The notes beneath the pieces were generated by a model that worked only from the letters and a program-made list of their open reading frames with translations, was not told the DNA's origin and made no database searches. Shown here piece after piece: positions 4,272-52,474 of a stretch of 64,000 nucleotides of DNA. Made by a program: the position numbers and the translations under genes. How positions within the stretch are numbered: the stretch's first letter is position 1; each line of letters starts with the position of its first letter. Location: the IMG/VR virus record IMGVR_UViG_3300032288_001804, positions 1 to 64,000 of that record. One strand, given 5' to 3'. The DNA is from a virus.

Positions 4272-4566
4272 CCCGTTCTCCAGTTTCAATATCTATTTCA
4301 ATTTCTTCCATTAGACCTTGTTCTTCAGCAAGGTCTTCTAGGAAGATTTGAAATGCCATGACGGTATATATATGATAGGCTAGCGGGGTTTCTTGCTTGC
4401 CTTCTTTTATATCCTCCATGATTTGCTTAAAGTGCTCTTTATCTTTGTATTCAAAGTGTTCACCGAGCATTTTATTAAATCTATAATAGAAAATACCGGG
4501 TATTTCAGCTTTGATAACTTTACTCTTATCAATGATTTTTACCTTTTGGGTTTTCTTTTCAGACAT
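4219..4566 (-). CDS. hypothetical protein, lone minus-strand gene
   Basis: Start MSEKKTQ; preceded by a TAAGTTTG promoter element. Confidence 0.65.
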   Translation of the reverse strand: MSEKKTQKVKIIDKSKVIKAEIPGIFYYRFNKMLGEHFEYKDKEHFKQIMEDIKEGKQETPLAYHIYTVMAFQIFLEDLAEEQGLMEEIEIDIETGERVNTEKNPQAPQSQSKPE

Positions 4567-13055: not shown

Positions 13056-13086
13056 TTGTATGTATGATTATTTTGTTGTATCTTTG
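13056..13086 (+). promoter_or_regulatory. Bacteroidota-type promoter of the HNH gene
   Basis: TTG(13056)-N20-TATCTTTG(13079-13086). Confidence 0.55.
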
Positions 13087-13105
13087 TATTATAAAGGGAT
13101 GCCAC

Positions 13106-13882
13106 ATGAAACATATATTAAAGCAAGGAGAAGTTATAACTGATAAACTTGGACAAGATACCAAACTTATTTATTTAGATGAGGCCGGTTATAAAGGAAA
13201 AGGAATGCGGTACATAAAAGTACAATGCCTTTCCTGTAAAGAAGATCATATAAAACAATATGCTTCAATTAGAGCTGGTTATATATCTACTTGTGGTGCA
13301 AAGTCTTGTAAAGTATCTAACCCATCACTGCATAAAATATCTTATAAACCAGGCCAACTAATACCTAATACAAGTTTTGTATACCTAGAGGAGGACATAC
13401 AGAAAAGTACATCTAATCATAGATACTTTAAAGTACAGTGCTCTTGTGATATTATAACTAGCATTAGAGTAGATAAGTTAAAAGGAACATGTAGAAAATG
13501 TGCTGATAAAAAAAGAAGAGAGTCCTTTACTCAAAAAAATAAAGAGAGTCTAATAAAGAATATTAGGAACTCTTATAAAAAAAATGCTTTACAAAGAGGT
13601 TATAGTTTTGAACTATCTGATAACTACTTTACAGATCTTATCTTTAGTAACTGTTATTATTGTAATGTAACACCTAATAATAAAATAAAAAAAGGTAACA
13701 AGTCAATATGCTATAATGGTGTTGACCGTAAAGATAATAACGATAACTATACAGAAAGCAACTGTGTTCCTTGTTGTGGAAAATGTAATATTATGAAAAA
13801 CAAATGGTCTCATGATGACTTTCTTAGTCACATAACTAAAATTATTAATAACTTTAATACAGAAGAAAATGCATCCGTATGA
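13106..13882 (+). mobile_element. HNH homing endonuclease
   Basis: Two Y.KVQC Zn-ribbon repeats; CYYC...NGVDRKDNNDNYTESNCVPCCGKCNIMK; probable start MKHILK. Confidence 0.85.
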
Positions 13883-27537: not shown

Positions 27538-28083
27538 TTAAAACTCTCTTAATAGGCTATAAGTAAACTCTTTTCTACCAGAAGCTTTACATACCGCAAG
27601 CATTGTGTTAAACTCGGTTGGATTATTAAGTACCTGGCATCCTGCGGACCACTTATCTATAAGTTTAGAGATAGCTGATGCATTAGCCCGATGTATGTTA
27701 ATACCAAATAAACCAGTTTGTTCTATTCCTTGTTCTTCTGCAGTGTCATCTTTGTCACCATCACGGTATACAGTTACAGGTTTACGTTGCACTAACGCTT
27801 CATACTTACCTTGGTGTAATCCTAATTGGTAAGCATCAATATATTGTCCGGGTTTCAATACTGCTGTACCTTTTGGATTTAGTAAGTTCTTTAACCAGTG
27901 AGTTCCAGGATTAGTTGTTCCTGAGAATACTTGCATCATTGGACCGTTTACTAAGTAAAAGGTATCATCAAACTTGTTCTTCTCATTAGCCTTAGATCTT
28001 ACACCAATAACGTGTAAGGTTGGCCATTGATAACCTAGTCTAGCAAATTCTGCTTCTAGTTCTTTGTAAGAATACTTTTTCAT
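27538..28083 (-). CDS. putative endolysin with a YkuD / L,D-transpeptidase-like catalytic motif
   Basis: GINIHRA...WSAGCQV (His...SxGC); heads the lysis cassette. Confidence 0.6.
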   Translation of the reverse strand: MKKYSYKELEAEFARLGYQWPTLHVIGVRSKANEKNKFDDTFYLVNGPMMQVFSGTTNPGTHWLKNLLNPKGTAVLKPGQYIDAYQLGLHQGKYEALVQRKPVTVYRDGDKDDTAEEQGIEQTGLFGINIHRANASAISKLIDKWSAGCQVLNNPTEFNTMLAVCKASGRKEFTYSLLREF

Positions 28084-31000
28084 TATTGTTCTGTTGCTAT
28101 GTTTTTACGTCTTGTTTCCATTGTTTTTTGTCTACCTGCAGGGTCTATAAACTGACCACTTAATCCAAAGAACTGACCAAGTGTTGAATACCATTTCGGA
28201 TCACCAGCTTTTTCCCAAGGATATACACCAGAGTCTTTTTGATAAATACCAGATCTATTATCAGTAATATCTGCTGCAATGTAGCTAACTAAGTTTATTG
28301 TACGGTTAACCGTAGGATTAAGCATAGCACCCGTTTTAAGGTTAAATATACTAGTAAGATTGCTAAGTCCATAACCTGGCCATGCTAACCAGTCTTCTTG
28401 GTCATGACCTACACGAGTTGTAATATACAAAGCTTGTAGTTCTAACCAATCTTTTGGTCTAAATACGGCAGATTCTTTTTCAATATCTCCATATAAGTCG
28501 CTTTCAACCTCAGCCCCTAAAATTGGTAAAGGACCGCTTCTTCTATAAAGCTTTTTCCAAGTATCAGGAGTTGGTAGTTGTTCTACAGTACCTTCTTTTT
28601 TACGCTCTTTAATTCTTCTTTTTAAATAGCTTTCAACATCTCCTGTTACAAGTAATCTTGCTTTAGCTTTTAAGTCAGCTTGTCTTTTCTTTTTAGCTTG
28701 TTCTTCTATAGCTTCTTCTTCATCATCATCTGGATTATAACCAAAAATTACAGATTTCATATAGCCAATAGCTATTAACATGCCTATCCATCTTACACTT
28801 TTCATCATATAGACACCCTCTTCTCTTGAAGGAGATGCTAATCCTGAACCATATGTTCTTACAGCTTTAGTAAGATAGTTAGCTACAGCACTAAAGAATC
28901 CCATATGGATGTCATCATTACCCCAATCATATCTTCCAACACCTTTACCAGCAAGTATATTACCTTTTACACCATAGTGATTTATCAACATCCTTGTAAG
29001 GTGTGTTTGAATAAATGATACTATTCTGTATAAAGCCCACTTCATTGCTTGTGGTTTATTAAATTCTCCAAATGCCCCGTTTATATTAGATATGACGGTT
29101 TGCATTCTACTTTTTACTTTTAAGAATTCTGGACCATTGATATCATATTTAGGGTCTACACCATCTTTTAATTTTATAAGACCATCTGGACCTTTTTCCC
29201 AAGCATTTAAATAATTTATATACTTAGTCTCACCATTTACAGTTTGCTTAACTTTTTGATAGTGCATCAATGCACCCATAGTTTGCATTGTTGCTAACAT
29301 TTCAAACCACTTACGTGTGTTAGTCATGAAGTTAAGTCTTACTACGTCACCTGCAAGATTTCTAGCAAGACCGTCATCTAAAGCTCTTTTTTGGTAATCT
29401 TCTCCAGGATCAAAAAGCTCAATAAGCTGACCTGTAACTGACTTAGGACCTGTTTTATAGATCTCTGCAGTCACAGTACTCATAGCTTTTACACCAAAAA
29501 CTTTTCCTGCTTGTAAACTAATTGGGTTAATATACTTAAATCCCCAGCCTTCAATTTTTAATTCCATTAAGGCATCATAGTAGTTTACAAGAGCGCTACT
29601 CGGGTCTAAAGCAAAGTATCCAAATGACGCTACTTTAGCCATTCCACCAAATAAATTATTTATTGCTACAGCACCGCCACCTTTTCCATATTTTTGACCT
29701 TCAAATTCCCTAGCGATAAGGTAATCTAACGCTTCATATCTAGGAGTTTCCTTAAAGAAGCCAACTACTTTTTCTTTTTTGGTCTTTTTATCTTGTTTCT
29801 CAGATGTAATTATTTCACCTAAGTTATCTAACTTATTCTTTTTATAAACTCTTTTTCCAGTTTCAGCATCCTTAACATAGTAGAATTCTTTCATAGCTTT
29901 AGCCATTGGAGATAATTCAACAAGCTTTTGATGCTTTTCTAAAGATGCCATATAACGCATTGTACTTTTTACAAAGTTTCTTGATACGTTATTCATTTCA
30001 ATATTAGACCTACCTTGAATAGGAATTTTTGAGTTTTGTTTAGCAAAGAAGCTTAGTGATTCTACTTCATAGTCTTCGGTAAAGTTTGCATCACCTTCTT
30101 CAAATGATCCAGCTCTTGGTGTGAAGAATCTTATTACATCCTCAAACCAGCGACTGAAAACCTTTGGTTTTTCTAAATTAGCTTTACCAGATATTTTTCT
30201 TTTTGTATTTCTTAATACATCCCCTATGTCCTCTGCAATATCTGTGGTATATCTAGGAAGCTCCAAATACATTTTAGTGCTGCGATCCTTGCCTTCTTGA
30301 ATACCTACATAAAATTCTTTATACTTTTCAAGAGCATCAAACATAGCCTTATTAGTTCTACGAAGTTCTAAATAACGCTTGTTTATAAATGGACTATCTG
30401 CAGGAGCACCTTGTGTTAAACGTTTAGGTAACCAATTACCTTTATTATCTTTGTTAGGTGGAATAATATTACCATTTGCATCTTGTGTGTTAGGTAATAT
30501 TTCTTCAGTTAAAAATTCTGGTTTAACATCAAACGTATAGTACTCTAAGTTAGGTACTGCTAATAGTGTTTCTTTTACAAGATTTCCTTTTTCATCTTTT
30601 TCTAAAGTTGCTGTAGGTATCTCAATACTTTCAAATAACTTATCATCTGCAGGCTGGCTATAGTTCCAAACTTGTAGTCTTTGCCAAGAATCTACCCAAC
30701 CACCTTTACCATCATAAATCTTTACTCGTATGTGATTTTTATCAAACCATGTTGCAAACTGTGCATTTTGAGATTTGATATTATCTACAACGTCATCTGC
30801 TAAAAAATAATCAGCATCGCTTTCACTTATATAGTTAACACCTAAATCATCAATAACAAATTGAGTATCGACAAGAGTTAGATAGTTATTATATATATCT
30901 AGGTAGTATGTATTAGCCTTTTTCTCACTAAGACTTCTTAATGTTTTATAAGCTGTTGCTAATGCTTTGTTCTCATCTTTAGTTAAACCATTGTAAGATT

Positions 31001-34000
31001 GCTTTTCAAATAGTTCAGCAGCACGATCTTGTTCATCTTGAGCTGGCATTTGTCCCATCCCGTAGTTGGCCAATGCAAAACGTTCAACATAGTCAAGTAA
31101 GAAATCATTTTCTTCCTCAGTAAGATTATTAATCTTACCAGAGTTTTCTTTTGCATATACAATAACCTCTTGAATATTTTTAATAAGCGCCATAGCTTCT
31201 TCTGTTATTTCAGAAGCTGCTACCATTTTACTTTCATCTCTACTAATAGAAGCAATGTCATTTATAATAGAATATAAATCACCAACTGATTCTATTTGAT
31301 CAATTATATCTTGACTTACATTTCTTTGTGCAAGCTGTTCCTTAAGAACCTTAGCGGTTGCTTCTTTTATCTTTGGATCTTTTTTAGCTTCAAGTTCTTT
31401 AATAGCTTGATAAAGACCTGCTTGTATTTCGTAATATTCTTTTTTTGCACTTACTCTTGTATTATTTGCAAGCCAAGTTTCACGCTCTCTTAAAAATTCT
31501 TCAGAATTTCTATCACCATTTATACTTGGTCTTAATAGTAACTGTTGCTCGTAGTCAGATAAGGCTTTTAAAAATACACCAGGACGTGGTTTAGATTCAT
31601 AGAACCCTGAGCTTAAACTTCTATACTCACGTAATCTTTCAGCAATAAGTTTTTCATCTCCGGTTTTAAGGTTTCCAAATCTGTCTACTAAGCTGTATAA
31701 AAATCTTTTTTCTTCTAGCGCAAGCTTACGTTGTTCTGTTTCATCTTTAATTTCAAAGCCTTGACGCTTCATGTCTTTCCACATCTGAAGCTTTTCATTA
31801 ATATCGTCAAGTCTTCTTTTAGCTTCTGCACCTATATCATCTCTTTCAAAGAGCTCTTGTCTTTCATAGAATTCAGGCTTATACTTATTGTTAAAATATA
31901 AGCGTCGCATCTTATCATACTCTTGCTTAAGCTTATTATATGCTTTTTTATCAGCATCGTTTAAGCTTTGGTAGTATGCAAAACGAGCTTTCTCAATATT
32001 AAATTGTTGTTGTGCATCCCACCATTCATACCCTACAAATTCGTCTAAGAACTTTAATACTTTAAATTCATAAAGATTACCATTTGCATTTTTTTCAGCA
32101 ATGCTATCTTCCATTAAGAAAGTATCTGCCATGCTAACTAAGTTTCTTGCATTTATACCAGCTTTCTTAAGAGCTGGTACAACTTGAGATGCAAACATAA
32201 CTTTATGAGTATGGATCTTTGATTCCATTTCCATATAGTTATTTCTTAGGTACTTAGCAAAAGCTCCTACAACAGGATCTTGGTTAACTAAGTAGCTTTC
32301 AAATAACGCATTCATCTGGCTGGCAAGTCCGTTGTTTACAAGATCGCCATCTACCATTTTCTTAAAGGAATCTTTAGTAAGCTTTATACTATTGTAAGCA
32401 GCCTCTTCTACAGCTAGTAATCTTTTAGTAGCTAACGGAGAATTTTCTAAAAATGCTTTACGCTTTAGCCAACGTTCATCTATTTTTTTAGCTGTTGGCT
32501 CAACAAACTCCCAAAGAGTATCTGTTAAGTTTTCACCATATACATATAGTGCAGCTTTTTTACCTCTCTTTGAAGCCTTTTCAATTTCTGATACAAGCTT
32601 TTGAAGATCTGATTCTTCTGTAACACCAAGGTTTTCTAAGTCATTAGTAATTTTATCAGCTAGTTCTATAAAAGAATCTAGATAATCACTAAGATTTTTA
32701 ACACGATAAATACTAGTTTCAGATACACCAAGGTTTTTAATCTCCTCAATTCTACCAGCAATCTTTTTAGAAATCATATTTAATTGCTGAAGACTGTTAA
32801 CAAATGCTATAGCAAGCTTTCTATTTTCTTCTACAAGATCTTTAATATGTCTAGTTCTATTAGACTGGTAATTACTAAGAGTAGAAGTAATATATGCAAG
32901 ATCCCTACTATCGTCAGTTGTTAATAGGAGGGCAAGTTCCTGGTACTCTTCTTTAGTGGTAGCTTGAAGCTGATCACTAAATAGTTTGTACATTGAATCA
33001 ATAGTATTTTTAAGTTGGGCATGTGTCTTCTTAGCAGTCTCATCATCAACCGCATTATCCAACTCCTTAATGAAATCATTTATTTCTTTAGCGTATTGTA
33101 CAGCATCCTGCTCTAAAGATTCTGCAGTACCTATTGATGTATCTATATTAAACTTCTCGGATAGCATTTCATTTGCTAAATCCATAAAAGAAGTATTAAC
33201 TCCTAGGTCACTAAGCTTAGGTCCAGCACCAAATAGTTTTCTAAAGAACTTTTTAATTTGATAAAGTATATTAGAAATCATTTCGCTGAATGAATTCGGC
33301 ATAGGTGTGCTAGAAAGCTGAGCCTGTGCTGCTATAGTCAACGCATGTACAATAATTTCTTCTGAAAATCCTTGTGGATCACCTTCAAGTTCAGGGTATT
33401 GCTTTAAAAAGTTTTCTTGTAAACCTAATTTACCTAATTCAGACCAAGCCTTCTTAGCTAGTTTTTGAAATAACTCTGGATTTTCTTTTGCTAAGTACTT
33501 TACAAAAGGGTGAGCAAACTCGTGAAATAAAGTCTTTGTACTTAATGCACCATCTACTATATATACTTTTCCATTATAAAAGAATGCTGGTGCATTATTA
33601 TAAGGAGCATTTGTATTCTTAGTAAGTTCTATTGCCTCATCTTTACTAATAAATTGAACCTCAGGTTCACCAAACACATTTAGCATGTTCATACTAGCTG
33701 CTAAGTTTTTTACAACTTGCATTGCTTGAACATGTTCTGATTGCTCTTGAGTTAATGTATTTGATAATAAATCATTTATTGCCTCATTATCTTCTTCATA
33801 AGTAAGGCTTATCATATCATCGATAGCTTCAATTTCCTTGATAAACCACGCCCTATCTATACCATTTTCCTGAGAACTAGGTGAGTTAGGTTGTATAGGT
33901 ATCGGAGTTTTAAGTACTTTTATGTAATACTTTTGAGGTCCGTTTCTTAAATCATTCTCCTCTTTTACAACATCTAAGTAGCGTATATTACCATTAAGTC

Positions 34001-36299
34001 TGTTGTAGGCATTAACCTCATTTATAGCATTGGTGTAACCACCTTGCGATAAATACTTTTTGTTATATATGTTTGTGTCACCATTCAGCTTCATAAGATG
34101 TTTCTTAAACTGAGCTGGTGTTAAATCATAAATGTTTTTATTATACTGCGGAGTATCTGTTGCTATATCTACAATGGCGTCATTGCTAAATGCAACTAGA
34201 TATTGACTATCCGAGAACATTGTATAGTCAAGTCCTCTATAACCTCTATCTTTAAGAAAATTAAAGAAGTCATTTTGAATAGCTAATCCTTCTGGAGAAT
34301 TATCAAGTATATTGAAATCAGTACCAGTTTGTTTTGTAAACTCAGATCTAAGTGCTCTATACTCTTTAGCGTCTCCTTGTAAAAATCCTTTAGTATCTAC
34401 ACTTACTTGTCTTACATTTTTACCGTAGTCTTTTGCCTCTGCTTTATCAACAGTAAAATAGTTAACATCTCTATTGTCTAGAGTATTATATCCTTGATAT
34501 ACAGTTTTAATGTCATCATTAGTTTCTTCAGTTTCCTGTATAGTATCTTCTATAAAAGAAAAATATCTGAACCCTGGAGCATTAAACTTATAAATGTCTT
34601 TCTTAAATGGGGCAAAGTAAATTAAGTCCATGATATCTTTACCACGGCCCATATTTATTTTTGCTTCAAAGATTTGCTTCCAGTCTTTCCAGTAGTTATC
34701 AAATATTTCTGGATAGTTACCTTCTCCAGTTCTTAAAAAGAAATCTAAAACGTATCTCTTAGGTCTGGTTTCACCAGTTTCTTCATCAATCTCAAATGCT
34801 GTAGGATGTTCAATATACCCGGTAATTGTAACACTTTCACCCTTTTTATGGTCACGTCCTATAAATGCAGTTTGGAATGTCCATGATGGAAATATGTTTT
34901 TTAGATTTTTATACCAAGATTGATCTTCCAAAAATGGTATGATCTCTTCATTAAATTTATTACGACCTAAAGCTGAACCAACACTTGATCTACGCTGCAT
35001 GTAACCTAGACCTTTGGTTTGAATCCAGTTTAAAAATTGTTGAGCATTTGCTTCTTTTCTAAAATGATCTAGTGTAATAACACCATCAATATCATGTAAG
35101 TCTTCACTAAAGCTTCTATATGTAGCACCGTATCTTCTTAATACTTGTGAACCAGATAACTTATAGGCTTTACCCTCAGGATCTAAAGAGTTAAATAGCT
35201 TTTGTAATACATCTGCTGCAAAAGGATCTGCAGATAATGTAGTGTAATAGTTTTTTTGTTCTAGTAGATTACCCTTTTTGTCATAGAGCATGCCATCGCG
35301 GACCTCTATACCACGCATCCACTTTTTGAAATCCTTCTTATAGATATCATCTACTAAATCAAAAAGTAAATCATTAAGCTTTTCAGCATTGTACTTAGTA
35401 AAAGGTTTACCATGTATTGCTTTATGTACGAAGTTGTATATAGCAGCTAAAGCTGTTTTAAGAACTGTTACTGCATAAGGGCTTTTAAAACCTTTTTTCT
35501 CAAAGAAAGATTTATCAATATCTGGATTTTCAAAGTCTACCTTCTCACGTAAATCTGGTCTATAGTTAAGTAAACCTTCTGTAATAAACTCAATAATAAC
35601 TTGTTTATGAGCCCAAGCGTTTTTAGGTGCACCTCTACGCTCTGAAGGGTCATCAACGGTTTCTTCAATGATCTCTAAATCAGCTTGTTGAACAGCATTG
35701 TTTTTAGTTAGGGTATCATATTTATCATATAATTCTTCATACTTATTCCAAAGCTTAATGTTAAACCATAGGTCTTTGGCTATTTTAGACTTTCTACCTA
35801 AAAATGTATAAGCAATATTAGCAGTTTGTTTTGCTAGCCCTTTATCAGAAAGATTTTTTGGTATCGCTAGGAGTTTCTGGAGCATATCAAAAGCTGCAAC
35901 AGGGGGGCCTAATTCGCCTTTATCCCATCTTCCTGCTGTACTCATTTGCTCTGCTAAACCAGTCCACTCTTGGCTACCTTCTTCAATAATATCAATACGT
36001 AGTGATCTTATAAAATCATATAAGGAATCTCTAAACTCTTTTTGTTGACCTTCAAACTTTTGATAAGCCTTAAGATTACCCTTAAAGTTTCTTACCTTAA
36101 ACTTTTTAAGATCTTGTCTTTTAGCTTCATAGTAGTCTCTGCGTTCTGGATAGGCTTCTTGTAAAGTATCTAAAATAGCAAAAGGATCAATTAAAGAACC
36201 TTTATCTTCAGTAAGTAGTAAATAATTACTTACATCATAGTCCCCTAACAATCTTCTTGCTGCTTCTAATGAAGGATTAAAAATTTGACAACTAGCCAT
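28083..36299 (-). CDS. giant virion ejection/cargo polyvalent protein (NTase, ART-like and zincin domains)
   Basis: 2738 aa; GS...DLHDID and RGKDIMD; VYQG...YFT...GYRG; HEFAH; single Cys at residue 4. Confidence 0.75.
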   Translation of the reverse strand: MASCQIFNPSLEAARRLLGDYDVSNYLLLTEDKGSLIDPFAILDTLQEAYPERRDYYEAKRQDLKKFKVRNFKGNLKAYQKFEGQQKEFRDSLYDFIRSLRIDIIEEGSQEWTGLAEQMSTAGRWDKGELGPPVAAFDMLQKLLAIPKNLSDKGLAKQTANIAYTFLGRKSKIAKDLWFNIKLWNKYEELYDKYDTLTKNNAVQQADLEIIEETVDDPSERRGAPKNAWAHKQVIIEFITEGLLNYRPDLREKVDFENPDIDKSFFEKKGFKSPYAVTVLKTALAAIYNFVHKAIHGKPFTKYNAEKLNDLLFDLVDDIYKKDFKKWMRGIEVRDGMLYDKKGNLLEQKNYYTTLSADPFAADVLQKLFNSLDPEGKAYKLSGSQVLRRYGATYRSFSEDLHDIDGVITLDHFRKEANAQQFLNWIQTKGLGYMQRRSSVGSALGRNKFNEEIIPFLEDQSWYKNLKNIFPSWTFQTAFIGRDHKKGESVTITGYIEHPTAFEIDEETGETRPKRYVLDFFLRTGEGNYPEIFDNYWKDWKQIFEAKINMGRGKDIMDLIYFAPFKKDIYKFNAPGFRYFSFIEDTIQETEETNDDIKTVYQGYNTLDNRDVNYFTVDKAEAKDYGKNVRQVSVDTKGFLQGDAKEYRALRSEFTKQTGTDFNILDNSPEGLAIQNDFFNFLKDRGYRGLDYTMFSDSQYLVAFSNDAIVDIATDTPQYNKNIYDLTPAQFKKHLMKLNGDTNIYNKKYLSQGGYTNAINEVNAYNRLNGNIRYLDVVKEENDLRNGPQKYYIKVLKTPIPIQPNSPSSQENGIDRAWFIKEIEAIDDMISLTYEEDNEAINDLLSNTLTQEQSEHVQAMQVVKNLAASMNMLNVFGEPEVQFISKDEAIELTKNTNAPYNNAPAFFYNGKVYIVDGALSTKTLFHEFAHPFVKYLAKENPELFQKLAKKAWSELGKLGLQENFLKQYPELEGDPQGFSEEIIVHALTIAAQAQLSSTPMPNSFSEMISNILYQIKKFFRKLFGAGPKLSDLGVNTSFMDLANEMLSEKFNIDTSIGTAESLEQDAVQYAKEINDFIKELDNAVDDETAKKTHAQLKNTIDSMYKLFSDQLQATTKEEYQELALLLTTDDSRDLAYITSTLSNYQSNRTRHIKDLVEENRKLAIAFVNSLQQLNMISKKIAGRIEEIKNLGVSETSIYRVKNLSDYLDSFIELADKITNDLENLGVTEESDLQKLVSEIEKASKRGKKAALYVYGENLTDTLWEFVEPTAKKIDERWLKRKAFLENSPLATKRLLAVEEAAYNSIKLTKDSFKKMVDGDLVNNGLASQMNALFESYLVNQDPVVGAFAKYLRNNYMEMESKIHTHKVMFASQVVPALKKAGINARNLVSMADTFLMEDSIAEKNANGNLYEFKVLKFLDEFVGYEWWDAQQQFNIEKARFAYYQSLNDADKKAYNKLKQEYDKMRRLYFNNKYKPEFYERQELFERDDIGAEAKRRLDDINEKLQMWKDMKRQGFEIKDETEQRKLALEEKRFLYSLVDRFGNLKTGDEKLIAERLREYRSLSSGFYESKPRPGVFLKALSDYEQQLLLRPSINGDRNSEEFLRERETWLANNTRVSAKKEYYEIQAGLYQAIKELEAKKDPKIKEATAKVLKEQLAQRNVSQDIIDQIESVGDLYSIINDIASISRDESKMVAASEITEEAMALIKNIQEVIVYAKENSGKINNLTEEENDFLLDYVERFALANYGMGQMPAQDEQDRAAELFEKQSYNGLTKDENKALATAYKTLRSLSEKKANTYYLDIYNNYLTLVDTQFVIDDLGVNYISESDADYFLADDVVDNIKSQNAQFATWFDKNHIRVKIYDGKGGWVDSWQRLQVWNYSQPADDKLFESIEIPTATLEKDEKGNLVKETLLAVPNLEYYTFDVKPEFLTEEILPNTQDANGNIIPPNKDNKGNWLPKRLTQGAPADSPFINKRYLELRRTNKAMFDALEKYKEFYVGIQEGKDRSTKMYLELPRYTTDIAEDIGDVLRNTKRKISGKANLEKPKVFSRWFEDVIRFFTPRAGSFEEGDANFTEDYEVESLSFFAKQNSKIPIQGRSNIEMNNVSRNFVKSTMRYMASLEKHQKLVELSPMAKAMKEFYYVKDAETGKRVYKKNKLDNLGEIITSEKQDKKTKKEKVVGFFKETPRYEALDYLIAREFEGQKYGKGGGAVAINNLFGGMAKVASFGYFALDPSSALVNYYDALMELKIEGWGFKYINPISLQAGKVFGVKAMSTVTAEIYKTGPKSVTGQLIELFDPGEDYQKRALDDGLARNLAGDVVRLNFMTNTRKWFEMLATMQTMGALMHYQKVKQTVNGETKYINYLNAWEKGPDGLIKLKDGVDPKYDINGPEFLKVKSRMQTVISNINGAFGEFNKPQAMKWALYRIVSFIQTHLTRMLINHYGVKGNILAGKGVGRYDWGNDDIHMGFFSAVANYLTKAVRTYGSGLASPSREEGVYMMKSVRWIGMLIAIGYMKSVIFGYNPDDDEEEAIEEQAKKKRQADLKAKARLLVTGDVESYLKRRIKERKKEGTVEQLPTPDTWKKLYRRSGPLPILGAEVESDLYGDIEKESAVFRPKDWLELQALYITTRVGHDQEDWLAWPGYGLSNLTSIFNLKTGAMLNPTVNRTINLVSYIAADITDNRSGIYQKDSGVYPWEKAGDPKWYSTLGQFFGLSGQFIDPAGRQKTMETRRKNIATEQ

Positions 36300-36302
36300 C
36301 TT

Positions 36303-45300: not shown

Positions 45301-46283
45301 CCAGAAATAGGAACTGTAACCCAGTTCTCTGGTTTGTTAAAATTCTCTTTAGTGTATGCAAATAAGTTTGTCATAAACTTAATCTCGGCGTCAAGAATTT
45401 CTTGAGCCTTTTCTACAGATATACCTTTACGTTTAGCAATATCTTCTGGAGCAAGTACACGTTTTCCTATATTCTCTGCAGCAGCTCTACCAGATCTAGC
45501 TTCAAAGTAAATAGGTTTACCATTGTTTTTATTTGTAACGTTATAATCTTTGTCAAAGAATAATAGATTACCACTTGCATCAGTAACAGCTAATAAAAGA
45601 TTGTCAGCTCTTGAGTAAGCTGTAGTATCATATATATCATCCTTCTTTACTTGAGTCTGTAATGCACCTCTTGGTATTGCAGTTAAGTGATAACCAAAAT
45701 TATTACCCTTAGCATTGTTAGTTATATGTAGGATAAAATCGTAGTAAAATGCTTTTGCTGGGTCTGGTACCCGGTCTTCAAGTTTAGTACCTGCGTTAAC
45801 TAAGTTTTGCAAACCTGTTGTAGAAAAAAGGCTATCAACAATATAGTTAAATGATGTAGCAAGTTCTAGTTTATTACCTGCTGGTAATTCGCCACTTGTA
45901 GATTGCTCAATTGAAGATTTAACTTCAGCTTCAGCAATATCTTCAGCGGCTTGTCCGGTTCCTAAATACTGTTGAACTTTAGCATAGTCTTCAAACTCTA
46001 TCATTTTCTCAGTAACAAAGTTTACGTTAAACCCTGTTTTAAGTAAATGCATAGTCACGTTGTTGTTAATGAAAGCAGCCTGGCTAACAATACTTGGTAT
46101 TATTTGAGTATACGCTTCAGTAACTAATTGGTCTTCTGTATTTTTAGAAATAAGATCTACAAGATCTCTCATGTAGGTCTCTGGGTTTATCGGAGTATTA
46201 TTTGAAAATGCTTCATAAAAATCACGATATACCATTTGGTAAAGCGAGTCTCTTTCCTTTTGACTTATACTACAGATTGCCAT
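36303..46283 (-). CDS. virion-packaged single-chain double-barrel RNA polymerase (crAss-like) with an N-terminal zincin domain
   Basis: 3326 aa; RIPVQG and GGDFDIDK catalytic loop (39351-39374); DAQGWIT; HEAWH. Confidence 0.9.
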   Translation of the reverse strand: MAICSISQKERDSLYQMVYRDFYEAFSNNTPINPETYMRDLVDLISKNTEDQLVTEAYTQIIPSIVSQAAFINNNVTMHLLKTGFNVNFVTEKMIEFEDYAKVQQYLGTGQAAEDIAEAEVKSSIEQSTSGELPAGNKLELATSFNYIVDSLFSTTGLQNLVNAGTKLEDRVPDPAKAFYYDFILHITNNAKGNNFGYHLTAIPRGALQTQVKKDDIYDTTAYSRADNLLLAVTDASGNLLFFDKDYNVTNKNNGKPIYFEARSGRAAAENIGKRVLAPEDIAKRKGISVEKAQEILDAEIKFMTNLFAYTKENFNKPENWVTVPISGTSLGAMYVDYNLLTPISKVNFINQVFKPVIVPEKNYQASGQTKTNQVFYINGVNGAIPIISRGMSSDIARKLARLIARPVVEVNELGDKRELSVDEKNKYLSEFIYLPESGIEYNYIKGLGPTLKLSGKSIDLENEAAVEDAIYKHLFEKFYVSGTEVTEKEIKAGFLNGKTVINNQKDKAYVDKLDENTIIEDPIARKRTKGTGYYKVYKRRLHIKSNVLGNISGLFDNFTINDKDGEWLKTKNEVNYVDYIKDNFYINIPLNKDNQIVGLNGHIKFDPSSETFEKILNYEKKKAAAPTKTNKGKKSATTKPTTKKKAAKTTEETPVEKVEEAPKKSAWEVINEIVKNDSLEDDEFQGLSRNKKQARDFVRQYGLRFDIAQLSPDELKAKLEEAKKWFDNSIFKNYFPLENLMNEVNTYDPTSVAKWYQNAIILFEGANYSDLYHEAWHGFTRMFMTDAQRQELYEKTRKRSGNFRTYKGVYRDFAKASDLELEEFLAEEFRAYMLSGGKMQIKDVTQRSIFRKILDFFLELFGAQSYNDMVLNQEALTYANDIYNKLQFGRLTEYSYSEQNLPAEIRQQVMNKGAESIDENYSTPLLTMRNSMELVDTLDSLVSDFVNLRIGVTEDGSGDKAYYTTALLSIPKGRDAALTYAKTKIEEAIEALDVQIANATTDSEKQRLLNQQDALVWATDNWDTESDKGIIAYYNKKSRFSDFVTAAEKAVLLFEDTGEFKSRDGHDRRGNEASLLDLANESVIYLIKSLHALESNGDKALNNLGFNTLMDFGIAWNRITRILQGANSPQEMYTRLQDSKEDYPFIQELLIKLGNPDTQMTANAQNLWTQFNDAFNKTRVPLVALVVDRTTNVLERDEEGNIIRTEYEYSAKVGGASTADAKIGRDWNDRFKTVTTKYIKPDINGNNFLDIDAIYNDYVSQYSNLNRIKFLQDVGIYFDNKSKIVAALNKMIPNPAKVIFDRIEAIKLHNDKAIAENKPKNIVIVRKIDDLINPTKKIRDNGEVLKGLRGFYNSLQKIQATYTDDYSDFMVLNAAGDAQYEFMENNTITQMIRELQEAPDFNTLTAKPEMNHLSGLRNPFVSNNPDPKRKRLITIHELFDMSKPNGPKRSIKEEVGSNEKITIDINNLAGVSFTVNGEANNGIAASDSDEFTKRLTDFHVSVIHGLPMGTTPADKSTILVYHLSNRKYYVNPREFALGTNGEAAAFNILLGYLEAELDRINRVKALPANAVERMIPVGKSTYGVEGQKFVIFSDMIRPELQEELMNIPAEYGGRLRDYLDLPESSDLKKRIADDVIKVYFANKINEFTEKLVEAEYIDNTMHDKIQEIYAGDDAKAKRLSRNETRNIAIKTHVYNSFIHNVETVLLYHGDPALYNMAKEEFQKRNAGINSGGIIPRTDPAMLRYLNNVVFAPDKASYRSSSWYTGQSVDKSYGEQFRSAVLEDVETKSLYYAAIEDDIRTSIKNSPGYKSGKLTDEEVNKIVSERAKPYREMKEGDAQGWITFDGYKALSIMMGAWSDTQELLYRDVLAKKNIDQTRIKEFFPVLKMQYWGPLATNGLPLTAFHKFSLVPLIPSTIEGSDLEKLHNKMVEQKVDYALFGSGSKIATITPNGKPDKFYKNSEDATNRELAFTEDGYMFTPNDIFLKYFKKQLEIAPKYKNKTTFPTQLRKLIESGLMENGVPTDFQPDMPKEVRIANWNKIGDDRTKRRESKNYSLIKRFQGNLENLMAQKKQELLDEIGWTYENGKPTGPLDKLFAYIESQLTKRELAEHHLDFVKLNKEGKLKSSLDVSLAAAEIEKVLVSIINKKLIKQKVTGEALVQVSGAGYTNRDFFNANKDSKERLEVLGTNDLPFYRKKDGKTMAMKIKIGIQGEYKKLLDLPKVTEMIEDAARKGQSLTRLQALNQLLKDESWLNEDDNRKLVSLAGVRIPVQGLNSMEFMEVYEFLPEGSNQIVLPAEIVAKSGGDFDIDKLTTLMYKLTKNEDGSVSIAEDFQNDVITDIMDILSLESNYVDLITPNATDIVLPIAQELASKVRPYDSLQNVFTERGDKIKGTRIFEIEYNIYKHGSNSIGKRTLGQGAVDNTYSVIFNTVGAYLQPSYKIDEDSKGNKVMKEQTIYLPHNTLLTPDGPAISLSNLYDADGINKVSDVISQLINGWVDIAKDPWIFDIQGNNFVAPALLLMVQAGVPIRQAAYFVSQPIIRQYITEVKKARSAYAGPLGIELSNPNFFRSEARRKVLMNFPEMLAYTDTNDDGDVVLYSKGIKNAATAIAGSLKDQIFNQQYFEDHLQDELDFESTDQLALLLHFLDIEDMSKVITAVKRTTNLDTQVAASLFETNLRQYQADQLREDERLGDDVINKILDDSSISSFGISEFMADIYKNLFTIRDSKLVNDYLLKKLGSKGFKDTVSDTFGDQESFISNFRNDLVMFMFQNYMRNLDLDSIKYYKSLQVASKAVKLKPTTKSPVSVFVKNVKLKDKTTIPMMYFDKQKLVEEFENLQSNSGKENINITNPELPFAFGAIRSTMFQNIREYGRYVMEREYLRNAIPVSEIIKRDDYIQYKKDFTAAKYEDFTEAELEKEATTFAYEHTLRDMALDNTFNQYYILKSPTKSYAKRLLDIKEKYPDLVQKYKVLDFLTADEAKTKERVIKFKSSKLDADRINRFHEDLVELMDPYNLIETANMTSSEAQEISKFFSNLPIYTMFTTGFNSKGEYGIGQIMPDTRLTPILESMLNYMEANKLMTWNLVNSYFNKFSTVNSYKNTASRYKVRNYTLDQPLWKASKNPAADLTGSFGTVQTFRDNYQSPSFIVEKAPEGVDIKLAINQLLKDRKNYLFVYNGAANPTAKALETNDSVFALSQEHTNSFGLTSKLGYQDVVSQQMNDDNYDLNVKAIENSIQALKTAAKDYDNKIFWNAAGYGQYMIGADVNGENVNQKRAKAPKTFVYLSKRLYEEFGYKNKNYEVVAPKKFIRVTREDILNKIQELNKC

Positions 46284-49200
46284 TATTCACAACGATTTTT
46301 AAGATTTTTTAAAAAGTTATTTTGCGCTTGAGCTGTACTCATCTTCTCAGCCTCGCTAGCAAGTTTTGCCTGAGCATCCTTATCATTAGCTAAAGTTTCC
46401 GCATTAGACTTTGATTCATTCATAACTTCTTCAGTTTCAGGTTTTGGTGCAGGAGCTTTCTTCTTTTTACCAGGTGAGACAACCATCTTATCTATATCAT
46501 CCACAAGCGACTCATCTAGAACTTCACCTATAGCATCCTCGTCATTCAAAGGTACAACAGTAACTTGTTTTTTACTAACTTTTTTAACCTTAACTATACG
46601 ACCATCATTAAGTTTAATGATCATACCTACTTCAGGTTTTGCTTTAGTTACTTCTTCCGTTTCAACAACTTCAGGCTCTCTAATAACATCTTCAACAGTA
46701 ATACCATATAACTTAAGCTCGTCAACTATTTTCTTAATTCTTTGGTTTAAATCATTGATTTTAACTAAGTTACCTGAAGCTATAGCCGCAACTTGTTCAC
46801 CTCTTAGCTTAGATAATTTATCAGTAAGGGCATCAATTCTTTTTTGCTGCTTAGCTTTTTCTGCTTCAACCAATGCATCCTCTTCTTCTTGAGTTCTAGT
46901 AACTTCTGAACCTGCGGGTCTTCCATAACCAGTTACTTCAAAGATGTCACGAGATGTATTTAGCTTTAATAGTATGCTAGGCTTTTCTTCAGTACCTGTA
47001 TTTAAACTATTAAGTGATCTAACTACACCATTAGAATTAGTAGAAAGCTGTATAGGTAGGATGTAAATGTCTGTAATATCTTCCCCGGTAGCTTGGCGAA
47101 TTAATTCACGGTATGCTAACTGCTGGATAGTGTGCCCACGCTCATATTGGAATTCATCTGCAGGGTCATTATAACTATCAACAAGATTTCTTGTAGAAGT
47201 CTTTAAGTCAATAATACCTAAGTTACCTTCTTTATCATATACAAGAAAGTCAATTTCCCCAGCACGTGGTCCTGCAATATCACCAAATAAAGTTGGAATA
47301 CTACCTATTATCTTAAGACCCTTACCGTTTAGATATTGTTTAACTTCAACCATTGTGTTGTACAATGCACTTGGAAAAGTCGCACTATACTGCATCATTT
47401 TCTCACCACTCTCGGAGTCAACCTTACCAGATAACTCTTCTAGTTTTTGTTTTACTTGCTCTGGTGTAGTTAATTTACCGTCAAAGAAATCACGGAAAAT
47501 GGGGTCAAGTACATTACCACGGTTAGCTGCAGTTGTATTAGTAAACTTCTTGGCTAAGATATCCCTAACGATATCACTAACACGAGCTACTTTATTACCA
47601 TCCTTTTCATATCCACCTTCTACTTTAGTAACTCCACTTGCTTTAAAGCTATCGCTAAGTTTCTTAATTAAAGCTTGTACTTTTTTATCAGCCTCAGCAA
47701 ATTCAGCATCTGCTTGGAACTGAGCTAGTGCTTGCTCTTTTGTTGTACCTGTAGAGTGTAAAGCAGTAACTTGATCTTCAGTTAATCCATTTATATCTTC
47801 TGGCAACCAACCCCTTGCAAATAAATCATCTCTAATCTGCTGAAAATCAAGTGGTTTAGGTTCTTCTGGTTTTTCTTCAACAGGAGCTTCAGTTTTACTT
47901 TTTTTCCAATTTTCAATAATTGTAACTGCCTTTGGGTTAGTTTGAACAAAGTTTCTAAAGCCCATGTTGCTTTCTTTTATCTTGGCAACGGCTGATACTT
48001 TTTTATAAGCATCATAAAGTAAATCGGAAAGATCCTTAGGTAGATTATCAACAGGAGTGTTAATGTCTATCTTATCTATATCCTCTTCTGTAACTATTTC
48101 ATCACTAGGTATAACCTCAGGAATTTCTTCAGTAACTTTTTCACGTTCGCTGCGAGGCTCAATACCAAGTAAAGGACTAATGAGTTTATCATATCTATCA
48201 TAGATCTCATTGTACATCTGTAACTCTAATGGAGACAACTTACTTTCATCTACATTACCTTCCGTATCTCTATAATTATCTATATTAGGTATTGCTTTAC
48301 GTAAGTCTTCTCGCTCTTGAGCTCTTAGCTTAGCTACTTTTTCTTCATTAGTTTCTTCAGGTATAACCGCTTCTTCTTCTTCAATAGCAACTTCCTCTAA
48401 CACCTCATCCTTTGGTTCTTCAACAGATTCCATAGCAGGAGACTTTCTACGCTCACCCGGCTTTTGTAAGTAGTCCGTTTGATCAATAGTTAATCCTACT
48501 AATGCTACAGCTTGCTTTAATACATTGTCATCAGAACTTTTTATCTTAAACGCGTTCTTAATAAACTTTTTAATAGAGTTTATTACTTGAGTAAATGTAC
48601 TTTCTTTTGGAGTTCTGGTAGATTTAACTTGAATAAGTAACGCTTGAAACTGTGGGTTAGTCATTACTTCATTAATAAAACTAACAGGTGATGACATACC
48701 TAATGGTATTTTACCACCAAAATCATCAAGTAAAGATGGATCAGTTTGAGCTGCTGCTTTTATAGCATCCATCATTTCTTCTACCTCAGCTGCAAATTCT
48801 TCATCTTGTAAAAAATCTGTAGTCAAAGACATCATCATACCTTTTAATACAAGGTACTCTGCTCTATAGTCATTGTCTTTATAATTAGAAGACGCATATC
48901 TAAAATCAATAATGAGCCCGTTTTTAGGATCATGTGAAATAGGTACGCTATGCTTAGGTCTAATGGTAACTTTCATGTCACCTTTGTTTAGACTTAAAAT
49001 CTTTTGAGCTAATTTCTTTTCTGCTGAAGTTGCAAACTTACTATTAATAATAAAATTGCAAAGGTCATCCATAGATACTACGGCTTCTCCATAAGCATCA
49101 ATACCTAACTCATTAGCATAATCTTGTACGGTGCGATTGTCTTGACCATTCTTTTTCTTATGTGCAAAACTAAAATACTCTTCTAGTAAACCAAGTTCTG

Positions 49201-52200
49201 CAGCAGCTTGGCGGATAGGTCTTTCTTTAACAACTTTATCATATACCTTTTCATAGTTATCAAACATTTCTTCAATAGCCGGTATACGAAGATCATTTCC
49301 TTTTATAGGTTGTAATGTCTTGGCATCAATTAATGTTGGATATCTATCATTTTTTTCAAATGCCTCAATATCATCTACACTTACAAATACACCTTGTTGC
49401 TCAAATAAAGCTTTTAAGAATGCATTTTGAATCATACCCTTCATGAACTTCTTTTTCTGTTCCCTAAGGATATCATTACGCTTTTCATATACACGTTTTA
49501 AAGAATAACCAATGTTATTTTTAAATTCATTAAAGCCGTTAGGATCGGTTAACATATTAACCCATCTAGCCATATTTCTATTATCAGTACCTAATGAATG
49601 CCAATCATTATACATGGTAAACATATCGTTAAGCTCTTCTGCTAAGAATGGTCTAACGTTGTTAGTAGTGGTCATATCATTAAAGTACTTATCAAAAGCA
49701 CTCTTTAAAACAGTTCTATACTCGTCTAATGCATCTTGAGATGTTAAATCATCTAATGTAAACTCTGTTTCATCTTCTGCATTTTTCTTTTCAAGATTCT
49801 CAACAAAAGATTTTCTAGCAGCTTCTAATTCTTTTTTCTCTTCTACAGTAAGTGTGCTTTTTCCAGCAAGACTTAAAAGAGTAGAATAAATAGAAGATGC
49901 ATTAGCAAGGTTTTCAAGATTATCTGCTTCACGTGTTAAACGTTTTGCAGTTTTAAGATCTCCGTTTTCTTCGTTTATCTTAGCCTGAGTTCTTAGCGAT
50001 TTAACATCATCTTGCATTTGAGATACAGAGAATATTTTAGATGCACGCATTCCAGGCATTCTAGAGAAACTAGGAATTGCGTTAAACTTCTCTTGTATAC
50101 CTTGTAATCTATCTAGTGTTTCTTCAAAAGTCTTACTTGAATATACCGCAAAGAAAGTAGCTTCCTCATGAGCATTATAATTGTTTACTTCTGCAGCATA
50201 AGCCTCAGGATTAGTAAACTTATTAATGCTGTTTGGATTGTACTTATTAGGCATTACCTCACGGAATTTTTCAAAGCGCTCTCCCAAGTCTTCTACATTT
50301 CTAATAGATTTTTCTAATCTAGAAAAGTATTTTGCTTGATCCGCTTCTACATAATCTTCACCTAAAGCATTAGCCAACTCTTCAGCATTAAGATTTCTCA
50401 TGTCTTTTAGGTTATCTATAAGAACATCTAATCTTCCGGCCTGAGAAAGTGTATGCACATAACTTATCGTTGCATCATTTCTAATATCACGTTGATCTTT
50501 TTCATCACTTAAAGCTTCAGCTACATGCCCAACTCTTGCATAGTTAATTTGTTCTCCACCAGCTTTATCAAATAGTTTGTAAAACTCTGCGGGATCATCA
50601 GCAGCTTTTTGTGCGGCAGTTAAAACTCTATTAGCTTGATCATTTAATTCTTGCGCATACTGCTCATAGTTTTCTTTACCATGCCAAGTCTTTTTACCAA
50701 GCTCAATTACTGGATTTGCAACTGATTTTACTAATGAAGTACCAGTGTATATTGCACCACCGCTTAATAAACCTTGTGCAAAAACTTCTAAACCTTCTTT
50801 ACTATATTGACTATTAGCTCCTACAAGTATAGACTCACCCATTATTCCCTTATGGAACTTAATAGGATCTTGAAACTTAGTAGTATAGTAGTGGTCAACA
50901 CCTTTAATTGCACCTTCTTGGAATAATTCCTGAACACCTTCTGGTACGTTTTTACCTAAGTAGTCAAGTAATCTTCCAGGAGTCTGCATCATAGCATGTT
51001 TTAAATATGCTTTCTTACCCCACTTTTTAATATTGTTTTCAATAAGCTCATAACTAGCTTTACCAGCTGCACCAGCTATAGTAGACTTTACTAAATGCTT
51101 ATTATAGTTTTTTACAAATTGATCTGCTAAACTTCTTTTTACTGTACCATGTCCAATGATTTTTTCAAAACCAAAGGCGTTGGTCATATATATAATAGGG
51201 AGATTTATAAGTGTAACAGCTTTACCATTTTGCTCAGCAATAGTTAAAATCTTTGACGCATCTTCACCAGTTGGTCCAGTAGAAAGCTTTTGCTTAGCAT
51301 CAGTTAACTCATTATATAATTGCTCATAGCGATTTTTATCAGTTACCTCGTTATTTTGATTAACAAGAGATTGCATTTCTTTAGTAATGCTAGCAATTTT
51401 CTTTTGTTGAACTGCACCATATTCTTGTCTACCAGATTCTATTTTTTCTAGTATAGCACCACCACCTTCAGTTTGAGCCTCATTAATACCAAATCTTATA
51501 CGTTGCAAATCTGCATAGCCACCACCAATAGATGCACTTAGTGCTAATATTCCATTTAAATCATTTGCTTCATCAAGACCTTTTAACGTATTCTTAAAAG
51601 GATTAACTTCTTTTGCAAAACCAATACCGGCACCTTTTATACCACCTAAGCCTTGTCTACCCTCCCAAAGCATTCTAACTTTGTTTATATTATCAGCTTT
51701 AGCAAATGCACTTAATGCGGTTTTTACATTTTTTCCTTTTTGAAGAAGAGATGGGATACGAAGTAAATTTCTAGCAGCTGCTGCGTCTAATGGTTTAGTA
51801 GCTGCACTAAGGCCCAATCTTGAACCAACAGTTTTAGCACCAAATAAAGCAAGCTCTTCAGTTAAAACACCTGCAGCTATACCTAACGTAGGAGCTAAGT
51901 TTGCAAAAAAGTTTACAGAGCTACCAGCAAATCCTGGCTTACTTGACATCATAATAGACATACCATCTTGGTATGCTTTAGCACCTTCTATATCAGGAGT
52001 AGCATCAAATAAATCACTAGGCTTTGTATATGGTTTTAAGTAATCTTTAGTAAAACCCCACATAGTACTAGGAAGGTATTTAGCCATCCTAATGAAATCA
52101 CTACCTACTGTACCATTCTCATTATAGTATTGCTCACTATCAAAGTTTGCAGGATTAAGACCAAGTATATCTACATCTGGATGTGCGTAATATCTTTTTA

Positions 52201-52474
52201 AATTAAATCCTTCACTACCCGCACCAAATTGACTTGGCTGTGAAAAACGCAAAGGATCAACCTTAGTATTAGCAATTTCAGAAATCTTACTATTCCAATC
52301 TTTAATTGAAGGGATTCCCGTATTTGTAACTTTTATAGGTGTTGTAGTTTTTGACTTATAATCTGGAGCAGGATTAGCAGAAGCTGCCGCAGGAGCTGCT
52401 AGCGGCTTTGTTTTCATGTTATCCCAAAATTCAAAAACAGAAGGTGTGCCTTGCGGAGTTTGTTCGTTTGCCAT
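46283..52474 (-). CDS. giant virion ejection/cargo protein with Gly/Ala-rich hydrophobic segments and a PD-(D/E)XK nuclease domain
   Basis: 2063 aa; AGEIDFLVYD...IIDLKTS...QQLAY; precedes the RNAP. Confidence 0.75.
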   Translation of the reverse strand: MANEQTPQGTPSVFEFWDNMKTKPLAAPAAASANPAPDYKSKTTTPIKVTNTGIPSIKDWNSKISEIANTKVDPLRFSQPSQFGAGSEGFNLKRYYAHPDVDILGLNPANFDSEQYYNENGTVGSDFIRMAKYLPSTMWGFTKDYLKPYTKPSDLFDATPDIEGAKAYQDGMSIMMSSKPGFAGSSVNFFANLAPTLGIAAGVLTEELALFGAKTVGSRLGLSAATKPLDAAAARNLLRIPSLLQKGKNVKTALSAFAKADNINKVRMLWEGRQGLGGIKGAGIGFAKEVNPFKNTLKGLDEANDLNGILALSASIGGGYADLQRIRFGINEAQTEGGGAILEKIESGRQEYGAVQQKKIASITKEMQSLVNQNNEVTDKNRYEQLYNELTDAKQKLSTGPTGEDASKILTIAEQNGKAVTLINLPIIYMTNAFGFEKIIGHGTVKRSLADQFVKNYNKHLVKSTIAGAAGKASYELIENNIKKWGKKAYLKHAMMQTPGRLLDYLGKNVPEGVQELFQEGAIKGVDHYYTTKFQDPIKFHKGIMGESILVGANSQYSKEGLEVFAQGLLSGGAIYTGTSLVKSVANPVIELGKKTWHGKENYEQYAQELNDQANRVLTAAQKAADDPAEFYKLFDKAGGEQINYARVGHVAEALSDEKDQRDIRNDATISYVHTLSQAGRLDVLIDNLKDMRNLNAEELANALGEDYVEADQAKYFSRLEKSIRNVEDLGERFEKFREVMPNKYNPNSINKFTNPEAYAAEVNNYNAHEEATFFAVYSSKTFEETLDRLQGIQEKFNAIPSFSRMPGMRASKIFSVSQMQDDVKSLRTQAKINEENGDLKTAKRLTREADNLENLANASSIYSTLLSLAGKSTLTVEEKKELEAARKSFVENLEKKNAEDETEFTLDDLTSQDALDEYRTVLKSAFDKYFNDMTTTNNVRPFLAEELNDMFTMYNDWHSLGTDNRNMARWVNMLTDPNGFNEFKNNIGYSLKRVYEKRNDILREQKKKFMKGMIQNAFLKALFEQQGVFVSVDDIEAFEKNDRYPTLIDAKTLQPIKGNDLRIPAIEEMFDNYEKVYDKVVKERPIRQAAAELGLLEEYFSFAHKKKNGQDNRTVQDYANELGIDAYGEAVVSMDDLCNFIINSKFATSAEKKLAQKILSLNKGDMKVTIRPKHSVPISHDPKNGLIIDFRYASSNYKDNDYRAEYLVLKGMMMSLTTDFLQDEEFAAEVEEMMDAIKAAAQTDPSLLDDFGGKIPLGMSSPVSFINEVMTNPQFQALLIQVKSTRTPKESTFTQVINSIKKFIKNAFKIKSSDDNVLKQAVALVGLTIDQTDYLQKPGERRKSPAMESVEEPKDEVLEEVAIEEEEAVIPEETNEEKVAKLRAQEREDLRKAIPNIDNYRDTEGNVDESKLSPLELQMYNEIYDRYDKLISPLLGIEPRSEREKVTEEIPEVIPSDEIVTEEDIDKIDINTPVDNLPKDLSDLLYDAYKKVSAVAKIKESNMGFRNFVQTNPKAVTIIENWKKSKTEAPVEEKPEEPKPLDFQQIRDDLFARGWLPEDINGLTEDQVTALHSTGTTKEQALAQFQADAEFAEADKKVQALIKKLSDSFKASGVTKVEGGYEKDGNKVARVSDIVRDILAKKFTNTTAANRGNVLDPIFRDFFDGKLTTPEQVKQKLEELSGKVDSESGEKMMQYSATFPSALYNTMVEVKQYLNGKGLKIIGSIPTLFGDIAGPRAGEIDFLVYDKEGNLGIIDLKTSTRNLVDSYNDPADEFQYERGHTIQQLAYRELIRQATGEDITDIYILPIQLSTNSNGVVRSLNSLNTGTEEKPSILLKLNTSRDIFEVTGYGRPAGSEVTRTQEEEDALVEAEKAKQQKRIDALTDKLSKLRGEQVAAIASGNLVKINDLNQRIKKIVDELKLYGITVEDVIREPEVVETEEVTKAKPEVGMIIKLNDGRIVKVKKVSKKQVTVVPLNDEDAIGEVLDESLVDDIDKMVVSPGKKKKAPAPKPETEEVMNESKSNAETLANDKDAQAKLASEAEKMSTAQAQNNFLKNLKNRCE

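Follow-up and report, generated by a model that had tools for sequence, protein, structure and literature searches.

Paired terminal cysteines suggest head-to-tail disulfides between the giant cargo proteins of crAss-like phages

Introduction

Crassviruses are the most abundant phages of the human gut. How do they pack and deliver polymerase proteins of ~0.7-0.9 MDa? The virion packaging, ejection and early-gene transcription of the trio of large proteins that includes the RNA polymerase (RNAP) are known only for phages phi14:2 and crAss001. Here we examine a homologous trio, encoded by three consecutive genes that we call A, B and C. It lies in a 64,000-nucleotide stretch of viral DNA (the window), positions 1 to 64,000 of the 96.4-kb IMG/VR record IMGVR_UViG_3300032288_001804, a genome that is ~81% complete. 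Cysteine (Cys) is nearly absent from the three proteins except at the ends that face one another in gene order.

In phi14:2, the homologues of A, B and C are packaged in the virion (Drobysheva et al. 2020/2021). The corresponding proteins of crAss001, gp47, gp50 and gp49, are assigned to the cargo zone of the capsid, where density was not resolved (PMC10172136). The authors of that structure, in which the cargo is not visible, consider that the order of cargo extrusion probably depends on interactions between the cargo proteins (PMC10172136). Several inter-subunit disulfides occur in crAss001 virions, in the tail and at the portal vertex (Bayfield et al. 2023, PMC10172136).

The closest precedent for a covalent link between ejection proteins comes from cyanophage A4. 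In its pre-ejectosome, solved by electron cryo-microscopy, a disulfide joins Cys1715 of gp27 to Cys5 of gp26 (PNAS 2025, PMC12002296). The helix at the C-terminus of gp27 docks into a gp26 cleft, and the disulfide lends stability to the pentameric ring (PMC12002296). In the genome of Anabaena phage A-4L, these are the only Cys in the two proteins: gp27 has 1717 amino acids (aa) and a sole Cys at 1715, and gp26 has 1114 aa and a sole Cys at 5.

Phage proteins that cross the periplasm are known to be poor in Cys. Cys is suppressed in the ejected proteins of Schitoviridae, where passage through the periplasm was offered as the explanation (PMC11445570). We count no Cys in the 3500 aa of the N4 virion RNAP and none in T7 gp15 and gp16, so this piece of background, on which an earlier note about the window had drawn, holds. 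The folds of N4-type and crAss RNAPs are unrelated (PMC13434306).

The earlier note, made from the letters of the window without database searches, proposed that disulfides between facing ends concatenate A, B and C into a redox-cleavable chain. Here we show that the terminal Cys are conserved in distant relatives and that they come and go with the breaks between proteins. We conclude that head-to-tail disulfides probably join the cargo proteins in the order A-B-C.

Results

Four of five cysteines lie at the junctions

Together the three proteins have 8127 residues and a computed mass of 923.5 kDa. They hold 5 Cys, or 0.06%, compared with 0.86% in the other open reading frames (ORFs) of the window. 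Protein A ends ...NRCE and has Cys at positions 1139 and 2062. B begins MAIC, ends ...LNKC and has only Cys 4 and 3326; C begins MASC and has only Cys 4. Translation thus reproduces exactly what the earlier note had counted by eye, five Cys with four at the junction termini (A-2062, B-4, B-3326 and C-4), and it bears out the statement that the RNAP lacks internal Cys and that the outer ends of the trio lack Cys altogether. By hand arithmetic, the chance that five randomly placed Cys would fill all four 4-residue junction tips is ~1e-11. Elsewhere in the genome, facing terminal Cys were found in two of 58 other adjacent gene pairs, and both pairs consist of proteins with more than 6% Cys. The one internal residue, Cys1139 of A, occupies an alignment column in which Cys appears only in the window's own cluster representative (L002) and 37 of 39 rows have a gap.

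The genes abut on the minus strand. A and B overlap in TAATG; between B and C the sequence reads TAA AAG ATG, and the two genes share a reading frame with only TAA AAG between them (window 36299-36308). Coordinates are collected in Table 1; those of the codons were checked against the sequence.

Table 1. Genes, motifs and cysteine codons of the trio, and the extra gene X of related loci (window coordinates unless a locus is named)
Feature	Position	Strand	Remarks
Gene A	46283..52474	-	2063 aa, 230 kDa; first member of the proposed chain; crAss001 gp47 family
Gene B	36303..46283	-	3326 aa, 378 kDa; crAss-type virion RNAP; middle member of the proposed chain
Gene C	28083..36299	-	2738 aa, 315 kDa; last member of the proposed chain; crAss001 gp49 / phi14:2 gp65 family, zincin-like
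Catalytic DFDID of B (2306-2310)	39354..39368	-	D-[FY]-D-[IV]-D in 45/45 relatives
HEFAH of C (926-930), an HExxH motif	33510..33524	-	H, E and H kept in 38/38 relatives that cover it
A Cys1139 codon, TGC	49058..49060	-	Single internal Cys; not conserved
A Cys2062 codon, TGT	46289..46291	-	Second-to-last residue; no other column is invariant among 40 aligned A tails
B Cys4 codon, TGT	46272..46274	-	Column nearly invariant in the B-head alignment
B Cys3326 codon, TGC	36306..36308	-	Last residue; C-terminal Cys in 54/54 lineages
C Cys4 codon, TGT	36288..36290	-	N-terminal Cys in 49/49 lineages
Gene X, L029	17259-17987
Gene X, L033	17640-18398
Gene X, L032	20142-20927
Gene X, L058	21933-23900

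The trio is probably cargo of a crAss-like podophage

By motif, homology and the A- and C-type partners that flank it, B is a member of the Crassvirales virion RNAP family. DFDxD is given as a crAss RNAP motif in a preprint (bioRxiv 10.1101/2020.03.07.982082), and D-[FY]-D-[IV]-D was found in B of all 45 relatives compared. With tblastn, B matched phi14:2 g066 (E 6e-12), phage cr108_1 (1e-24) and other crAss RNAPs, and a hidden Markov model (HMM) of the B family matched phi14:2 g066 (1.1e-36) and crAss001 gp50 (2.2e-30). The corresponding model for C matched crAss001 gp49 (4.3e-61) and phi14:2 g065 (2.3e-37), and that for A matched crAss001 gp47 (1.4e-22). The two His and the Glu of the C motif are kept in 38 of 38 relatives that cover the HExxH region. 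Upstream of the nearly Cys-free cargo block lie TerL, portal and major capsid protein genes, a crAss-like structural module, and the tail-side proteins of the genome contain 5-6.7% Cys. A, B and C are probably internal cargo of a crAss-like podophage, purged of Cys as ejected phage proteins generally are.

Other searches returned little. Neither megablast nor tblastn with the first 1000 aa of B found a match among cultured phages, and phmmer searches of PDB with the single sequences of B and C found none. Pfam and PHROGs gave nothing for B or C, and for A only a sub-threshold nuclease match: residues 1649-1821 (window 47012-47530, minus strand) weakly resemble PD-(D/E)XK families (an E of 0.004 with Pfam and of 7e-4 for a PHROG exonuclease; neither passes the cut-off).

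Terminal cysteines are conserved at internal junctions only

A scan of viral contigs yielded 77 related loci, mostly 28-35% identical in B, which we clustered (≤80% identity) into 54 lineages. We called a Cys terminal if it lies no more than 10 residues from a protein end. By this measure Cys is present at the A C-terminus in 40 of 41 lineages, at the B N-terminus in 44 of 45, and at the other two internal ends without exception (Table 1). Both misses (L032 and L042) are ORFs split by a frameshift, and there the pieces that hold the true ends carry the Cys. The outer termini have Cys in 0/39 and 0/49. Counted over the complete proteins of the lineages, 333,126 residues hold 176 terminal and 23 internal Cys.

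The two described trios agree. In phi14:2, g067 has Cys at position 1797 of 1797, g066 at 3 and 2179, and g065 at 3, with no other Cys, a pattern identical to that of the window. In crAss001 the residues are Cys 2339 of 2341 in gp47, 5 and 2404 in gp50, and 5 in gp49. The gene for gp47 lies on the strand opposite gp50-gp49; the ends of A and B are therefore not neighbours in the DNA, and the pattern is kept all the same. Among the relatives, junction Cys are encoded by both TGT and TGC, gene spacing and frame differ, and so does the exact position of the Cys. Because of the split strands in crAss001, the use of both codons and the variable spacing and frame, we place the signal at the level of protein, not nucleotide.

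What surrounds the junction Cys is also partly shared: short conserved amphipathic motifs flank them, and Lys is often adjacent (NKC, KKC, SKTC). Internal Cys, for their part, range up to 0.15% in several gut crassviruses and are rarer in the metagenomic relatives (0.007%), in marine phi14:2 (0) and in Flavobacterium phage Fpv1 (0.017%), a difference that might mirror oxic and anoxic habitats.

Cysteine pairs come and go with protein breaks

The number of proteins in the chain is not constant. In several lineages an extra gene, X, is inserted between B and C; its product, of 242-261 aa (655 aa in L058), follows the pattern MAC...C, residue 3 and the final residue being its sole Cys. Other lineages carry X as an extension of B; the C-terminal 120 aa of X match the end of that longer protein with E values of 1e-8 to 1e-18, and these B-X fusions have no internal Cys.

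Fusions of A to B are found in Fpv1 and in the gut phages cr1_1, cr118_1, cr7_1, cr109_1 and cr10_1, and the sole terminal pair that they retain is the one at the break before C. Thus the 4401 residues of Fpv1 gp33 include one Cys, at position 4400, which faces the MAC of gp34. Where B is fused to C (p-crAssphage gp44, crAss002 gp33), A|B is the one break that still has its pair; in p-crAssphage gp45 ends ...SCM and gp44 begins MSC. The terminal Cys number twice the real protein breaks, namely 2, 4 and 6 in chains of 2, 3 and 4 proteins. Every fusion costs the chain its two flanking Cys and no others, and we infer from this that facing Cys are functionally coupled. The earlier note had predicted that orthologous trios would carry terminal Cys at internal junctions only and lose them upon fusion, and among the relatives this is what we find.

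False breaks provide a negative control. In cr108_1 (NC_055878.1; L089 20406-20695), a 290-nucleotide non-coding insert, which looks like an intron, splits the RNAP gene inside DFDID (...AKAGSD / LYDIDK...). The record annotates two coding sequences, and there is no Cys on either side of this pseudo-break. The frameshift breaks in L032 and L042 likewise have no Cys.

Two further cargo proteins of crassviruses have a lone Cys near the C-terminus. In p-crAssphage gp47 (L081 5588-8161) it is residue 856 of 857, and in crAss002 gp30 (L082 4393-6066) residue 550 of 557, in a CGG context. In neither case does the next protein have a facing N-terminal Cys.

Other proteins with unusual cysteine content

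Cys128 and Cys134 are the only Cys of the 1492-aa protein encoded upstream of A (window 52477-56955, minus strand). Both recur in ~30%-identical relatives (L012, L025, L036, L045 and L055), and other relatives have none; this may be a cargo or channel component that keeps a small CxxxxxC site. A 272-aa protein (window 13064-13882, plus strand) contains 6.25% Cys, in CxxC-like pairs at 55/58, 143/146, 197/200 and 234/237, and from its sequence looks rich in zinc fingers. Cys makes up 3-6.7% of five or six tail-side proteins encoded in succession outside the window, at 73323-80129 of the record (L093 9323-16129), in sharp contrast to a cargo block that is nearly Cys-free. The ends of these tail-side proteins are Cys-rich (MACKTCNC..., MACCAIIK..., ...CGCGCGTC) and face one another across two gene junctions. 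PHROGs gave no match for the two that were searched.

Discussion

Why would proteins purged of Cys keep one at each end that faces a neighbour? Our results favour the explanation that head-to-tail disulfides join A to B and B to C, and we consider this probable; the disulfide-chain interpretation of the earlier note is, as a whole, partly supported. On this account, A-Cys2062 would bond B-Cys4, and B-Cys3326 would bond C-Cys4, after the particle enters an oxidising environment. This would yield a chain that is linear in topology, measures 8127 residues and 0.92 MDa, and has stubs no longer than a few residues at its joints. A likely use of such a chain would be to hold A, B and C at 1:1:1 and to keep them together through packaging, passage of the tail and crossing of the periplasm, after which host thiol reductases would separate them in the cytoplasm. 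More speculatively, a Cys within a few residues of each end might leave the joint thin enough for the tail channel.

Structure prediction adds some detail. In single-chain AlphaFold models, B-Cys4 lies in a low-confidence flexible tip that precedes a helix (8-27) of a confidently predicted helical domain, and A-Cys2062 comes just after a predicted terminal helix (184-198 of the last 200 residues). Taken with the flanking amphipathic motifs, the predicted helices beside the Cys suggest that the ends dock and are then locked.

The same features could be read differently. The facing Cys may indeed bond, not to make a linear chain that is threaded through the tail in order, but to staple A, B and C together within the capsid as a folded holo-complex or pre-ejectosome. 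This is how the A4 bond works, where the gp27 helix docks in gp26 and the pentameric ring is stabilised (PMC12002296), and the junction Cys of the window also adjoin predicted helices and conserved amphipathic motifs. On the other hand, crAss001 gp47, gp49 and gp50 show no ordered density (PMC10172136), and the Cys always lie within 10 residues of the ends, at every break of chains of variable length, which suits end-to-end concatenation better. We think the staple unlikely.

A second alternative replaces the disulfide with another linkage, for example a metal ion held between the two Cys or a redox bridge from Lys to Cys. The frequent Lys beside the Cys would fit the latter, and shared metal sites were raised in the earlier note. 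No His, Asp or second Cys is conserved beside them, and in the tails of A the Cys is the sole invariant column. Two Cys at each break, always, make pairs and not a Cys4 site, and in A4 the bond is a plain disulfide. This alternative seems to us very improbable.

At least as improbable is a third, in which each terminal Cys pairs with a different partner (the portal, the inner capsid or other cargo) or marks a signal for packaging or processing. The lone C-terminal Cys of p-crAssphage gp47 and crAss002 gp30, which have no obvious facing partner, could be cited in its favour. But fusions remove exactly two flanking Cys and new breaks add two, and outer termini never carry one. A role in cleavage predicts that the Cys would be retained in fused polyproteins, and the opposite is observed; for the same reason, we rejected the idea that they are relics of protease sites.

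Chance, or a nucleotide-level feature of the junctions such as a translational coupling signal, has a negligible claim: the genes do abut, but the arrangement is vanishingly improbable in the window alone and is repeated in 54 lineages, it persists in crAss001 with A and B non-adjacent, it uses both Cys codons with variable Cys position and spacing, and we regard this origin as refuted by the crAss001 layout and the 54-lineage count. Two narrower proposals were also set aside. Joining of B and C by read-through or frameshifting is unlikely; the genes are in frame here, but spacing and frame vary among relatives. Cyclisation of B with pairing of A and C is less likely than facing pairs, given that each fusion removes its own two flanking Cys.

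If head-to-tail disulfides are indeed what the Cys form, a broader picture can be drawn: the RNAP cargo of Crassvirales would be injected as one covalent, redox-cleavable 'train' of 2-4 giant proteins and 5,000-9,000 residues, in fixed order, with the polymerase activated only upon release in the cytoplasm, and with fusion and Cys pair as interchangeable ways of making the joint. We offer this tentatively and lean slightly against it as a whole.

Several points weigh against the proposed chain or its role. The case for an A-B-C bond in any crassvirus is drawn from the pattern in the sequences and from the analogy with A4. The A4 bond staples a folded ring and not a thread, and so the role as a 'train' may not hold. 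Apart from short helices, the regions adjoining the termini are poorly conserved. The loss of Cys at fusions could be partly a by-product of the deletion that makes a fusion. The cytoplasm is reducing, so that the proteins might oxidise only late, and disulfides in virions may form in air. A thioredoxin family search of this 81%-complete genome found no thioredoxin-fold gene. Finally, the texts covered make no mention of junction Cys for Crassvirales; these were the paper on the crAss001 structure, the preprint on phi14:2, papers on N4 and other full-text matches.

A conserved covalent tether from end to end, if it exists, would give a physical basis to the order of cargo extrusion. It would also explain the free alternation of fused and split gene architectures, and release would come with its own redox switch. 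The terminal-Cys rule has a practical use in annotation as well: it marks true starts and ends, shows which breaks are real and which come from an intron or a frameshift, and points out further members of the chain.

Comparison with known systems

Among the closest known systems are phi14:2 g067-g066-g065 and crAss001 gp47/gp50/gp49, which are homologous to the trio of the window and have an identical pattern of terminal Cys. The window proteins are larger (8127 aa compared with 5398 in phi14:2 and 6102 in crAss001) and only 20-30% identical to them. With Schitoviridae (N4 gp50-52, DEV gp71-73) and T7 gp14-16, the trio shares the strong suppression of Cys in proteins that cross the periplasm. 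It differs from N4 vRNAP and T7 gp15/gp16, which have no junction Cys; with 5 Cys, four of them terminal, it does not belong to the fully Cys-free type of ejection operon.

A4 offers the closest parallel for the bond itself. There, too, consecutive genes encode large ejection proteins that are otherwise Cys-free: a single Cys sits at the far C-terminal end of the first and another within residues 3-6 of the second. Comparison of A4 gp27 and gp26 with A, B and C gave a best blastp E of 0.29 and no HMM match. Because there is no sequence similarity, the relation is one of analogy and not of family membership. A4 has one link between two proteins, no RNA polymerase among them, and a folded five-fold ring. 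The window would have two links among three proteins, and relatives up to three links, under a rule that is order-wide.

The earlier note was not aware of any description of such a chain. For Crassvirales this stands in the literature searched, whereas the principle has its precedent in A4. A4 is the solved single-link case; what is new here is a multi-link chain, proposed to include a virion RNA polymerase and kept across a phage order.

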